From: an uncultured Candidatus Saccharibacteria bacterium
Lineage (GTDB): Bacteria > Patescibacteriota > Doudnabacteria > UBA920
NCBI GenBank assembly: GCA_964372905.1
Contig: CAYJQY010000001.1
Coordinates: 72,848-136,847 of the forward strand
DNA: 64,000 nt
Direction: 5' to 3'
Shown: positions 182 to 15,219 of the stretch, piece by piece
Numbering within the stretch: position 1 is the stretch's first letter
Layout of the letters: the number at the start of each line of letters is the position of its first letter
Notes under the pieces: generated by a model
Databases searched by the model: none
What the model was told of the DNA's origin: nothing
Seen by the model: only the letters and a program-made list of their open reading frames with translations
Position numbers and translations under genes: made by a program

Positions 182-257
182 TGGAGCCGTTGGCCGGAAT
201 TGAACCGGCGACCTACTCCTTACCATGGAGTTGCTCTACCAACTGAGCTACAACGGC
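182..257 (-). tRNA. tRNA-Thr(GGU)
   Basis: Reverse complement folds as a 76-nt cloverleaf: acceptor GCCGTTG/CAACGGC, D-arm GCTC-AGTTGGTA-GAGC, anticodon loop auGGUaa, T-arm GCCGG-TTCAATT-CCGGC, encoded CCA. Confidence 0.8.
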
Positions 258-11840: not shown

Positions 11841-11930
11841 AAAAATTGAAATCTGAAGTGTTCCATGATGAATTTTTTCCTCATATACATGAGGAAATTT
11901 AGTTTGTCCCTGCCAAATCCCCGCTAAAAT

Positions 11931-11959
11931 TTGCATTTTTGAAAATTTTCCCTTATAAT
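11931..11959 (+). promoter_or_regulatory. near-consensus sigma70 promoter (TTGCAT, 17-nt spacer, TATAAT) in the dnaE-thrS intergenic region
   Basis: ttgcat-ttttgaaaattttccct-tataat. It would drive a transcript with a ~260-nt structured leader into the 12223 ORF. Confidence 0.5.
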
Positions 11960-12222
11960 TTCCCCAATAGATAAGAGCAATTTTATCTTGCACCTTCCAA
12001 GCAAAATACAAAACTGGAAAAGAAAAGCCGTGTTTCCTGCTACGATCCTTAGCCCTGATTTCGGGAATAGGGATCGTAGCAGGAGGTAGCACAAAACTCC
12101 CTCTACGGCGGGCGGAGAGCCTTCTCTGTCTGAACTCTGTTAACAGATAACAGAAGTTAGCTGAAGCACTTTCGGTTTGGTCTCAGGATTGGCCTGAAAT
12201 CAAACACACGAGGTGAATCACT

Positions 12223-12648
12223 ATGAGAACGAGACGAACCCTATGGGCTATCGTTTTGGCAAGCGCCGTGATCATCGGGTTGATGACAACGACGGAGGCT
12301 GCCCAGGCGACGGCAAGCATTAACAAGACGGCCGTGTGCGTGGCGATGAGTATCAATATCCCGCCCGGAAACGCGACAACGGCTGAGGCCGCGATGGTAG
12401 CTGGAGCGGCAGCGCGGTATGCCGACGTGCTACACAAGAAGCAGGCTAACCTGAATTCAAGCGCGATGCTGAGGGCGGAGAATACAGGATGCCTTGGAAC
12501 GGTGACCCCTACACTCGCTAAGCGTTCGGCTTCGACCACTTCGAACCGGACGCCTGGAGAAAACTCGGCCCGGTCTCGGGCTCATAACACGGCCGCGGGA
12601 ACATCACGCGGCGCACCGGCGGTTTCGCAGAACAAGCAGATCGGATAA
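12223..12648 (+). CDS. hypothetical small secreted protein (signal peptide, Ala/Thr/Ser-rich), atypical GC-rich composition
   Basis: GAGGTGA Shine-Dalgarno 7 nt upstream of the ATG. N-terminal MRTRRTLWAIVLASAVIIGLMTTTEAAQA resembles a signal peptide. The C-terminal half is low complexity. Could also be a spurious ORF over a structured RNA. Confidence 0.35.
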   Translation: MRTRRTLWAIVLASAVIIGLMTTTEAAQATASINKTAVCVAMSINIPPGNATTAEAAMVAGAAARYADVLHKKQANLNSSAMLRAENTGCLGTVTPTLAKRSASTTSNRTPGENSARSRAHNTAAGTSRGAPAVSQNKQIG

Positions 12649-13112
12649 TCCGCCGTTCGGGAGTCGGCCCTCCAGTTCAGTAACATTCGGGCTGGAGGGC
12701 CCGACTCATAAACATGCCTAGTAGGGACGCCAATTGGCGAATCGAGCGGCGCGCGGGGCGAATCCCCGTTTACAATTTAATTTATAAGAGGATCTTATTG
12801 AGGACGTCCGGCCTTAAAGCCGGATTGTAGAATTGCTACCTTGCAGTTTTATCGCGAAAGCACAACAAATGTTGTGTCTTTCTTTCGTTATAGGGGCTTA
12901 TTGACCGTATTGTGAGAATAATTTAAACTAAAAGCAGTATCGCAAACGTTGATCCGGCCACCAACCGGGGAGCTTGAATAAAATCAATAAAAAGGCCGCG
13001 CAATTTGGTGCGCAGCGATCTGGGACGGAAACGTCGCTCGAAATTCGAAGACCCCAGGACTTGGTTTCTGATCATCTATTTATTGATCAGTGGCCGACTC
13101 CCGGGGTTTTAT

Positions 13113-13364
13113 TTAACCCTTAATGCCAAAATGGGTTTTGATGCTTACGAGACCAGTTTCCAAAGCTTCTACTCTAGTTTCAATCCGGTCCATTCGATGA
13201 ACGCCCATGACCACCTCTTGCTCTAAACGTTTCAAAATAACCATGACTTCATCCATTTTCCGTAAAAACTCGTCACGAGTAAGAACGTTTGCCAACATAA
13301 CTTCGTGTCTAGCTAAAATTTCATCATGATCCATAATCTTGCGATAAATAAACTTTTCATTCAT
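13113..13364 (-). CDS. hypothetical small coiled-coil protein (83 aa)
   Basis: ATG at 13362-13364 preceded by an AAAGGA SD (MNEKFIYRKIMDHDE..). Heptad-like charged sequence. A downstream minus-strand terminator lies near 12985-13010. Confidence 0.5.
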   Translation of the reverse strand: MNEKFIYRKIMDHDEILARHEVMLANVLTRDEFLRKMDEVMVILKRLEQEVVMGVHRMDRIETRVEALETGLVSIKTHFGIKG

Positions 13365-13452
13365 GCACCGTCCTTTCAAATTAATTCTTTTATCTGCGCT
13401 TGTCAATGATATAATAACTATGCTTAAATTCTGATGAAGATAAGATAAATTT

Positions 13453-15219
13453 ATGATCAAAAACGACGAAGTTATCCACAATCTAAGACATTCTCTGGCG
13501 CACCTTTTGGCCGCGGCGGTGATTGAGCTTTACCCGGGCGCTCAAAACGCCATCGGTCCGGCCATCGAGGACGGGTTTTATCAGGATTTGGACATTCCAA
13601 AACCGATCTCGGAAAACGACCTGCCGGCAATCGAGCGGAAGATGCGCGAGATTCTTAAAACGTGGAAAAAATTCGAACGCCGCAAGGTCAGTCCAGAAGA
13701 AGCTCTAAAGCAATTTTCCTGGAACACTTATAAACAAGAACTCATTCGTGACTTTGCCCAAGAAGGCCAAACGATTACCCTCTATATTTCGGGAAACTTC
13801 GTGGATCTTTGCCGCGGCGGCCATGTAGAGGATGTGACTCAAATAAATCCTGACGCGTTCAAACTGACTAAAGTCGCCGGCGCCTACTGGAGAGGAAATC
13901 AATCCAAGCAGCAACTCACCCGCATCTACGGCCTGGCTTTCAATTCCAAAAAGGAGCTCGACGACTACGAAAAAATGCTGGCTGAAGCCGAGAAGCGCGA
14001 CCACAAAAAACTAGGCAAAGAGTTAGGATTGTTTGCATTTTCAGAAACCGTAGGCAAAGGCCTGCCGCTTTGGACACCCAAAGGCTCAGTCGTACGCCGC
14101 GAGCTGGAACGCTTCATTGTTGATGAAGAACTCAAGCGCGGCTATCTGCATGTCTACACGCCGGACATCGCGCGCCTGGAACTCTATAAAAAGTCCGGCC
14201 ACTATCCCTACTATAAAGACTCTATGTATGCGCCCATCAAAATCGATGAAGATGAATTTATGCTTCGCCCCATGACCTGCCCGCATCACTTTGAACTTTA
14301 CTTAAGCGAGCCCCATAGCTATCGCGAGCTACCTATGCGTATAGCCGAGCTGGCCCACAATTACCGTTATGAACAATCCGGGGAGCTTATGGGACTGCTT
14401 CGGGTGCGCACTTTCTGCCTGGCAGACGCTCATATCATCGCCCGCAAACAACAAGCCTTAACAGAAATTACAGGCGTACTTGACCTCATAGAATTTGTCT
14501 GCACCACACTGGGCCTGAGCCAAGGCGAAGACTACCGCTATCACCTCTCACTCGGTGACCGCAACGATGAAAAAAAATACTACAAGGATGATGCGGCCTG
14601 GGATGAAGCTGAATCCGCTTTACGCAAAGCGCTCCAAGAGCGAAACGCAACCTTTTTCGAAGCCGAAAATGAAGCCGCGTTCTACGGCCCAAAAATTGAT
14701 ATTCAGATGAAGAACGTCAACGGCAAGGAAGATACTGCCTTTACGGTCCAATACGATTTCGTTATGCCTAAACGGTTCAAGCTGACCTACACTAATGAAT
14801 CGGGGCAAGACGAGGAGCCGATTGTCATTCACCGTTCCTCCATTGGCGCGCTGGAAAGAATTTTTGCCTTTCTTATTGAACGCTACGCCGGCGCATTCCC
14901 GGTTTGGCTGGCGCCGGTGCAAGCTATGGTTTTACCCATCAGCGAGAAACAAATTGACTACGCCCGTTCTGTCGCCGCCGAGCTTAAACAGCTAATACCT
15001 GCTATTCGCATCGAGATGGACGAGCGCAGCGAGTCCATCGGCAAAAAAATCCGCGAAGCAAGCATGCAAAAAATCCCCTATCTCGTTATTGTAGGCGATA
15101 AAGAAGTTGCGGCGAAACAGATTGCGGTGCGTGCTAGAGGTGACCAGGATTTGGGAGCACTGTCGGTTAAAAAATTTAGCGACCATCTCAAACAAGAAAT
15201 AGACAGTAAAAAATTGTGA
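13453..15219 (+). CDS. thrS: threonyl-tRNA synthetase lacking the N-terminal TGS/N1 domains
   Basis: Starts at the second additional (editing-type) domain with HSLAHLL. Class II core with the Zn site CPHH, anticodon-binding C-terminus, 588 aa. Confidence 0.9.
   Translation: MIKNDEVIHNLRHSLAHLLAAAVIELYPGAQNAIGPAIEDGFYQDLDIPKPISENDLPAIERKMREILKTWKKFERRKVSPEEALKQFSWNTYKQELIRDFAQEGQTITLYISGNFVDLCRGGHVEDVTQINPDAFKLTKVAGAYWRGNQSKQQLTRIYGLAFNSKKELDDYEKMLAEAEKRDHKKLGKELGLFAFSETVGKGLPLWTPKGSVVRRELERFIVDEELKRGYLHVYTPDIARLELYKKSGHYPYYKDSMYAPIKIDEDEFMLRPMTCPHHFELYLSEPHSYRELPMRIAELAHNYRYEQSGELMGLLRVRTFCLADAHIIARKQQALTEITGVLDLIEFVCTTLGLSQGEDYRYHLSLGDRNDEKKYYKDDAAWDEAESALRKALQERNATFFEAENEAAFYGPKIDIQMKNVNGKEDTAFTVQYDFVMPKRFKLTYTNESGQDEEPIVIHRSSIGALERIFAFLIERYAGAFPVWLAPVQAMVLPISEKQIDYARSVAAELKQLIPAIRIEMDERSESIGKKIREASMQKIPYLVIVGDKEVAAKQIAVRARGDQDLGALSVKKFSDHLKQEIDSKKL

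Follow-up and report, generated by a model that had tools for sequence, protein, structure and literature searches.

T-boxes are the standard example of a tRNA-sensing riboswitch and have been described mainly in Gram-positive bacteria; members of the ultrashort class carry the specifier in a terminal loop. The thrS gene of Escherichia coli has a translational operator which mimics the anticodon arm of tRNA-Thr and is bound by threonyl-tRNA synthetase (ThrRS). Transcriptional T-boxes are generally held to depend on a long Stem I that captures the tRNA elbow, and the UGGN at the edge of their bulge is reported to be invariant (PMC7583486). Translational T-boxes with a short or "ultrashort" Stem I are found at ileS in Actinobacteria (Sherwood, Grundy & Henkin 2015, summarized in PMC7583486 and PMC11297988). 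Here we describe a putative T-box-type leader upstream of thrS in a 64,000-nt stretch of DNA (the window; contig CAYJQY010000001.1, positions 72,848 to 136,847) from an uncultured Candidatus Saccharibacteria bacterium of the Doudnabacteria lineage of Patescibacteria. In the window, dnaE extends to 11840, and the thrS coding sequence begins at 13453. An earlier note, written from the sequence alone, had singled out the interval from 11841 to 13112 as a GC-rich, hairpin-dense and apparently noncoding region. We consider it probable that this interval is a composite and not one element, consisting of an insertion with an orphan gene followed by a thrS leader of the T-box family.

The leader came to light through comparison with related genomes, a check that the earlier note had proposed and the sole route that exposed it. 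The comparison covered 171 related loci, designated by L-numbers and amounting to 1.55 Mb for blastn. The lead was a weak blastn match between positions 12944 to 13058 and the syntenic spacer of L006, the locus with the most similar dnaE; both elements had a plus-strand promoter-like site just 5' and a long hairpin with a T-run just 3'. In the thrS upstream regions of the fetched loci, GGGUGGAACC/GGGTGGAACC was present 60 to 180 nt before thrS in 15 loci, and profile and pattern searches yielded about 20 further loci with UGGAACC leaders. Overall, about 35 of 156 Patescibacteria thrS loci exhibited a leader with a short Stem I, a YYACCAR loop, a UGGAACC bulge, and a terminator (among them L005, L010, L018, L021, L028, L031, L033, L058, L062, L069, L079, L091, L105 to L107, L110, L111, L113, L117, L124, L136, L137, L142, L145, L150, L165, and L168). 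Further thrS relatives provided one new variant (L166, described below), the canonical leaders of L165 and L168, and several loci with no leader. A different GC-rich hairpin leader, without UGGAACC, was observed upstream of thrS in another Patescibacteria contig (L175, 1820 to 1900), so that the phylum has thrS leaders of more than one kind.

In all family leaders, Stem I was a hairpin of 5 to 7 bp with a 7-nt YYACCAR loop, most commonly CUACCAA. This loop matches a tRNA anticodon loop in size and in its Y-U/C-NNN-R-N pattern, and in every member examined it presented ACC, a threonine codon, followed by a purine. RNAalifold analysis of 24 sequences returned Stem I, A1, the 7-nt bulge UGGAACC, and A2; 15 of the 16 pairs showed compensatory changes, and across the family the Stem I hairpin covaried at all 7 of its pairs. 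In a model-based alignment of 32 sequences, 88% of the cells were paired, compared with 60% in shuffles and 36 to 44% with slid partners, and two-sided changes were found at 16 of 16 pairs. A covariance model built from canonical members only (R1) recovered the untrained members L091, L142, L168, L165, L009, L023, L030, and L006 with E values of 1e-7 to 0.05. Each leader ended in a hairpin and U-run, the 5' arm of which overlapped the 3' strand of A1. The UGGA of the family bulge is complementary to the 3' end, U73-CCA, of the window's tRNA-Thr(GGU), in which the CCA is genomically encoded, and the family discriminator agrees with the published T-box sequence AGGGUGGNACCGCG (PMC11297988).

Compared with the class I T-boxes of Firmicutes (Bacillus subtilis tyrS, glyQS, and thrS; Rfam RF00230), these leaders share the same-strand position before a synthetase gene, the cognate codon followed by a purine, and the succession of purine run, Stem III, and an A1-bulge-A2 unit whose 3' strand also takes part in a terminator followed by a U-run. 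The relatives of the window also share GGGUGGAACCGCG, in which UGGA matches the UCCA of tRNA-Thr. They differ from class I in Stem I, which family-wide holds the codon in its terminal loop; the family lacks the long Stem I of class I, with its K-turn, internal Specifier Loop, and platform for the elbow. They also score far below the Rfam gathering threshold: the gathering score of 93 bits was reached by none of 24 canonical-relative loci, and in L107 the RF00230 model aligned Stem III, GGGUGGAACCGCG, and A2 (37.5 bits; E value of 4e-7) but skipped 78 model positions of the distal Stem I. With the ileS T-boxes of Actinobacteria, the leaders have in common a truncated Stem I without elbow platform and, in family members, a canonical discriminator. 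The Actinobacteria elements, however, belong to another phylum, respond to Ile and not Thr, and sequester the Shine-Dalgarno sequence, whereas the Patescibacteria leaders end in a hairpin and U-run, which argues for transcription attenuation. With the E. coli operator they share a structured thrS leader and a 7-nt loop of anticodon-loop geometry. A leader of that type was nevertheless ruled out, since the loop carries the codon ACC and not an NGU anticodon and would thus pair with the tRNA instead of mimicking it for the enzyme; the design is also one of terminator and antiterminator, with no occlusion of a ribosome-binding site. Judged by its conserved sequence and covariation, the Patescibacteria thrS leader family is a T-box family with classical antiterminator/terminator competition.

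The window element occupies the same-strand, thrS-upstream position of the canonical leaders in the approximately 35 related loci, and its parts are listed in Table 1. A second covariance model (R2) was trained on ten leaders of the close clade, among them the variant L006 but neither the window nor L166. R2 aligned over its full length to positions 12939 to 13075 (23.5 bits; E value of about 0.01 to 0.015), and an unfiltered search of both strands of the 64 kb gave no other match. In a blastn search with 12900 to 13120, the elements of L006 and L166, each at the syntenic position, were the only matches (E value of 6e-6 each). Stem I was 88% paired in the close clade. Downstream of it, the layout agrees with the RRRxG-Stem III-AA motif (PMC7583486), and L006 and L166 have the same purine run and Stem III layout with other stem sequences. 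L006 also has TTTACA-16-TATAAT at the position matching the promoter-like site of the window's leader. G-U pairs and model matches put the RNA on the plus strand only, so a minus-strand thrS leader was ruled out.

When the segment from 13017 to 13060 was folded alone, its minimum free energy (MFE) structure consisted of A1, the 8-nt bulge, and A2, and the same topology was obtained in six relatives. The full-length sequence instead folded into the terminator, which uses 13050 to 13058 (-41.9 kcal/mol versus -11.6 kcal/mol for the antiterminator). The antiterminator and terminator are mutually exclusive because both use the same 3' strands.

Several results weigh against the assignment of the window element to this family. 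RF00230 gave no match on the 196-nt window element even at E values up to 10, and a sequence-only nhmmer profile of the family missed it. R1 placed the window's Stem I correctly but with only 9.7 bits (E value of 4.4 over the window). The R2 E value is approximate and modest, from a training set that holds the variant L006, and R2 failed to detect L166, whose Stem I was misplaced in MAFFT alignments, which were therefore not used for a model. Taking position, strand, architecture, and model match together with these points, the element at 12936 to 13114 appears to be a T-box leader derived from the widespread thrS T-box of Patescibacteria, and it would bind tRNA and control thrS.

Table 1. Features of the dnaE-thrS region and the presumed tRNA ligand (positions in the window)
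Feature	Position	Strand	Description and basis
dnaE terminator	11876-11907	+	9-bp hairpin TTTCCTCAT/ATGAGGAAA, then TTTAGTTTGT; 36 nt past dnaE stop
Promoter-like site for ORF141 transcript	11930-11959	+	TTTGCA-18-TATAAT; consensus match only, 10/12
Structured 5' leader of ORF141	11966-12222	+	~255 nt, with 22-bp hairpin at 12035-12084; folding
ORF141	12223-12648	+	Orphan, 141 codons, 60% GC; open reading frame (ORF) list; called as gene on 4 identical Logan contigs
GC hairpin	12658-12705	+	No U-run; 10 nt after ORF141 stop; 5' arm is one arm of 12-nt inverted repeat
Terminator-like hairpin	12860-12887	+	GCACAACAAATGTTGTGT plus CTTTCTTTCG (T-run); probable end of ORF141 transcript
Promoter-like site for T-box-type leader	12901-12929	+	TTGACC-17-TAAACT; just upstream of leader
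Whole T-box-type leader	12936-13114	+	Decoding hairpin, Stem III, antiterminator, terminator; covariance model R2, blastn
P1	12943-12947/12972-12976	+	
Stem I	12953-12957/12965-12969	+	TCCGG, loop CCACCAA, CCGGG; Thr codon ACC at 12960-12962, then A at 12963
Purine run and Stem III	12988-13016	+	AAAAAGG; stem GCCGCGCA/TGCGCAGC, arms 12995-13002/13009-13016; GAU linker to A1
A1	13019-13024/13053-13058	+	TCTGGG/CCCAGG
Bulge	13025-13032	+	ACGGAAAC, 8 nt, replacing UGGAACC
A2	13033-13035/13050-13052	+	GTC...GAC, plus inner helix; whole antiterminator 13019-13058
Terminator	13048-13114	+	27-nt arms 13048-13074/13084-13110, then TTTTATTT; 5' arm holds 3' strands of A2 and A1
ORF83	13113-13364	-	Orphan, 83 codons, between T-box terminator and thrS; ORF list
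Candidate proximal thrS promoter	13407-13415	+	Extended -10 TGATATAAT; read from sequence
thrS (threonyl-tRNA synthetase)	13453-15219	+	Domains tRNA-synt_2b, HGTP_anticodon, tRNA_SAD; presumed regulated gene
tRNA-Thr(GGU) gene	182-257	-	Presumed ligand; tRNA scan

The part of the interval that precedes the leader is of another kind. About 25 Patescibacteria species keep the dnaE-thrS gene order, the gap between the two genes ranging from 6 nt to 3.2 kb; across species this gap is a variable insertion spot. The sequence from 11841 to 12900 had no blastn match in any of the 171 related loci. As the distance from dnaE stop to thrS start is only 176 nt in L165 and about 300 nt in L005, both close relatives, and the size of the gap varies, we infer that 11841 to 12900 is a lineage-specific insertion, confined to this strain, between dnaE and the thrS leader. 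Of the origins suggested in the earlier note, a degraded mobile insertion agrees with this in that an insertion fits 11841 to 12900; no mobile-element genes or terminal repeats were found there. An imperfect 23-nt direct repeat (11916 to 11938 and 12761 to 12783; 74% identity, common AATCCCCG, spacing 845 nt) flanks the ORF141 unit, and it could mark the insertion or be due to chance.

The inserted DNA looks like one small transcription unit comprising a promoter, a leader, ORF141, a GC hairpin, and a terminator. The hairpins listed in the earlier note were recovered. That after dnaE has arms at 11876 to 11884 and 11889 to 11897 followed by a T-rich tail, the long one in the ORF141 leader has arms at 12035 to 12058 and 12061 to 12084 with the outer 14 bp perfect, and the GC hairpin contains a perfect 10-bp core (12666 to 12675 and 12692 to 12701). 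The promoter-like site was likewise found, as was the absence of a tmRNA, with which the tRNA/tmRNA scan agreed. The leader segment of ORF141 folded with an MFE of -96.8 kcal/mol (z of -6.5 for 11966 to 12240, plus strand), and it had no homolog in any of the 171 related loci. What needed correction in that description was the extent of high GC, the noncoding character, and the adjacency to thrS. GC content was elevated at about 12150 to 12750 (0.56 to 0.61), which corresponds to the ORF at 12223 to 12648, and was 0.40 to 0.52 elsewhere in the region. The interval does not adjoin thrS, since ORF83 intervenes on the minus strand.

ORF141 is probably an orphan gene, a status that is only moderately supported. 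A GAGGTG Shine-Dalgarno site lies 7 nt before its ATG, and its translation begins with MRTRRTLWAIVLASAVIIGLMTTTEAAQA, which has a positive start (MRTRRT), a hydrophobic core of 15 residues, and an AQA (AxA) motif, followed by a low-complexity remainder rich in Ala, Thr, Ser, Asn, and Arg. The product resembles a small secreted protein of the Sec/Tat type. This Shine-Dalgarno site and the signal-peptide-like N terminus speak against a purely noncoding interval, although the ORF has no homologs. Both a word-indexed search of 5.8 billion proteins and an exhaustive HMMER search of 1.84 billion representatives returned only ORF141 itself, apart from a single non-self match (P0002) that was rejected as a repetitive-sequence artefact, and no family was found in Pfam, NCBIfam, or PHROGs.

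The alternative for ORF141 is that the GC-rich DNA from 12100 to 12760 is a noncoding remnant of foreign DNA in which the frame is a by-product of high GC. The absence of homologs and families speaks for this alternative and against a gene, as does codon usage, which is atypical in every frame of ORF141: the codon score of -0.09 (compared with 0.35 ± 0.10 for window genes, minimum 0.10) is under that of every real window gene, and this holds in all six frames. A 118-codon ORF is also open on the opposite strand. Against it stand the Shine-Dalgarno site, the secretion-like N terminus, a promoter-like site 5' and hairpins 3' of the frame, the body of the ORF, which alone in the region is unstructured (z about 0), and the identity of the sequence in four independent samples. 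On balance we regard the noncoding alternative as rather unlikely. The orphan gene is of minor interest, as an example of the dnaE-thrS gap as an insertion spot. The four public (Logan) contigs that contain the locus, from four independent samples, were 100% identical and thus gave no covariation information. The organism is present in the samples ERR3478686 and ERR4904390-92.

The leader of the window departs from the canonical family in its bulge. L165, L168, L005, and about 30 other relatives have AGGGUGGNACCGCG, in which UGGN forms the 5' edge of the 7-nt bulge; this was not found in the window, which reads CUGGG-ACGGAAAC-GUCG, an 8-nt bulge with CGGA shifted by one A. In this the window element differs from both the class I T-boxes and its canonical relatives; L006 and L166 likewise have ACGGAAWC in place of UGGAACC. 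The variant bulge is ACGGAAAC or ACGGAAUC, all three variant elements match the 16-mer CTGGGACGGAAWCGTC exactly, and the closest canonical relatives (L165, L168, and L005) keep UGGAACC. The antiterminators of the variant trio were 92% paired, compared with 28 to 61% in slid controls. The ThrRS proteins of the three variant genomes are 64 to 69% identical to each other; within the trio, Stem I, Stem III, the inner A2, and the terminator remain paired despite sequence differences. As the helices stay paired across genomes this divergent, the variant is conserved and not decaying. We tentatively propose that a sub-lineage represented by the window genome, L006, and L166 replaced UGGN by ACGG(A) in an 8-nt bulge that may still be under selection. 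Much more likely than this sub-lineage claim is the existence of the class as such, a widespread and unannotated class of transcriptional thrS T-boxes in Patescibacteria with the codon in the 7-nt terminal loop of an anticodon-loop-like hairpin, Stem I.

The window's leader might operate as follows. Transcription would start at about 12936, and the loop CCACCAA of the short Stem I would display ACC and a 3' purine in an anticodon-loop-like form for pairing with the GGU of tRNA-Thr. Uncharged tRNA at the A1/A2 bulge would then stabilize the antiterminator (13019 to 13058). Without tRNA, the far more stable terminator (13048 to 13110 plus the U-run) would form, and transcription would halt before thrS. 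The bulge of the window leaves only GGA:UCC for contact with the tRNA end; A76 would face a C, and an additional A borders A1. Acceptor-end sensing in the variant would therefore be altered, or possibly lost. The functions put forward here for the leader and for ORF141 are read from sequence.

Some features of the locus count against this mechanism. The UGGN of T-boxes is absent from the window element, the terminator is separated from the thrS ATG by 337 nt that contain an antisense ORF, and the putative proximal promoter TGATATAAT could make thrS independent of the leader. A 12-mer, ATATAATAACTA, is found just upstream of the thrS ATG in both the window (13407 to 13420 region) and L006 (5541 to 5552). 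These observations also fit a rival explanation, in which the element no longer controls thrS and is a free-standing RNA of about 175 nt that always terminates, maybe a tRNA-Thr-binding or antisense small RNA (sRNA). On this explanation, the loss of UGGN and the altered bulge would represent a new or lost ligand contact that arose after insertion of a downstream gene and acquisition by thrS of its own promoter, for which the 12-mer shared with L006 is a candidate motif. All three variants have an extra gene between terminator and thrS (ORF83 on the minus strand, ORF62 on the minus strand, and DUF559 on the plus strand), compared with 20 to 120 nt and no gene in the canonical L165, L168, L005, and L010. 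The variant terminators also far outweigh the antiterminators, by the energies given above for the window, and the canonical difference is about 10 kcal/mol. Against this, genomes with only 64 to 69% ThrRS identity have all retained the loop with ACC, Stem III, A1, A2, and a terminator that overlaps A1, which argues for continued selection on the architecture of a switch and not merely on a hairpin RNA, and the downstream genes of L166 share the strand of the leader and could be reached by read-through. A decoupled RNA seems unlikely to us, and the variant may still control thrS.

The gene downstream of the terminator in L166 (2627 to 3040) encodes a DUF559 endonuclease-like protein, is bordered by C-rich and G-rich repeats, and runs into the start of thrS; the dnaE-to-leader spacer of L166 contains a 32-nt hairpin element, AAAGGCTCTCCGATGTTCATCGGAGAGCCTTT, twice (approximately 1722 to 1753 and 2236 to 2267). 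In the window, the translation of ORF83 resembles a coiled coil, the protein search returned only a self-match, and no Pfam, NCBIfam, or PHROG family was found. An ORF83 transcript would cross the T-box discriminator in antisense. The minus-strand terminator of the earlier note is present (13016 to 12995 plus CTTTTTATTG) but was rejected as a separate feature, being Stem III and the purine run seen from the opposite strand; on the minus strand this site may end the ORF83 transcript as well. The closest thrS matches among the relatives were in Candidatus Doudnabacteria and other metagenome-assembled genomes of the candidate phyla radiation (CPR) with identities of at most 70%. The best identity was 70% among GTDB representative genomes and slightly higher among JGI metagenomes (72%) and in the protein database (76%); the gene for the 76% match (P0005) lies on a contig of JGI 3300067032 and has a gap of 220 nt upstream.

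As to what the interval might be, the earlier note had offered several readings, of which the suspicion of a structured regulatory RNA proved sound, while those that made the interval a single element did not. A riboswitch-like leader for the ORF at 12223 was one of them: a leader of the riboswitch class does exist, but only at 12936 to 13114, and it belongs to thrS. Another was a miniature inverted-repeat transposable element (MITE) or degraded mobile element bracketed by the 12-nt inverted repeat (12658 to 12669 and 13092 to 13103). This repeat is present and perfect, the dnaE-thrS gap is a variable insertion spot, and the L166 gap has its own repeated hairpin element; hairpin-rich intergenic DNA and an inverted repeat around 430 bp are also properties of MITEs and repetitive extragenic palindrome-like repeats. 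Unlike such elements, the segment is single-copy, since the proposed BLASTN copy check found no second copy in the 64-kb window, which is part of a 141-kb contig, and only the T-box part matched in the 171 related loci. No target-site duplication was found, the repeat arms lie inside two unrelated, functional-looking hairpins (the hairpin 3' of ORF141 and the T-box terminator, in its 3' arm), and the 180 nt on the right belong to a conserved leader that occupies its ancestral place. The repeat is itself only marginally unusual, as a perfect distant repeat of at least 12 nt was found in 43 of 1,000 dinucleotide shuffles (about 4%). A MITE or mobile element in this segment is accordingly very improbable. 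The arm at 12658 to 12669 has its complement in the 3' arm of the T-box terminator, and if ORF141 transcripts read through, it could hinder formation of the terminator, with the repeat standing at about the 4% chance level.

The least probable of these explanations, to the point of being hardly credible, is that the whole 1.27 kb forms one large structured noncoding RNA: folding does beat shuffles on both strands, as the claim of hairpin density had implied (z about -6 to -7; for 12640 to 13125, -7.0 on the plus and -6.6 on the minus strand), but in 120-nt windows the strong signal falls into four separate blocks (11960 to 12160, 12600 to 12760, 12760 to 12920, and 13000 to 13160) around a core (12200 to 12600) with z near 0, as in the coding sequences of dnaE and thrS, internal promoter-like and terminator-like sites split the region, and only the last 180 nt are conserved. 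The Rfam scan that had been suggested found no family on the region even at E values up to 10; over the region, the whole window, and the 196-nt element, only two tRNAs were matched.

In the full-text literature, of which coverage was incomplete so that an earlier description is possible, our searches turned up no paper that connects T-boxes to Patescibacteria, CPR, or Parcubacteria. TBDB uses the Rfam class I model and a class II model applied to Actinobacteria, and it probably misses the short-Stem-I leaders of Patescibacteria. Since no locus reached the Rfam gathering score, standard Rfam-based annotation would likewise miss and not report this thrS class.

The family joins a minimal hairpin decoder to an intrinsic terminator, and one sub-lineage is without UGGN; the rules that call for a long Stem I and for UGGN can therefore be tested on natural sequences. 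If true, the replacement of UGGN would mean that the tRNA 3' end is read in another way or not at all, the possibilities being that a C-A76 mismatch is tolerated, that the integrity of the 3' end is sensed, or that the element has been converted to a tRNA-binding sRNA. More broadly, these leaders suggest that the ultra-small genomes of the CPR regulate thrS via tRNA charging.

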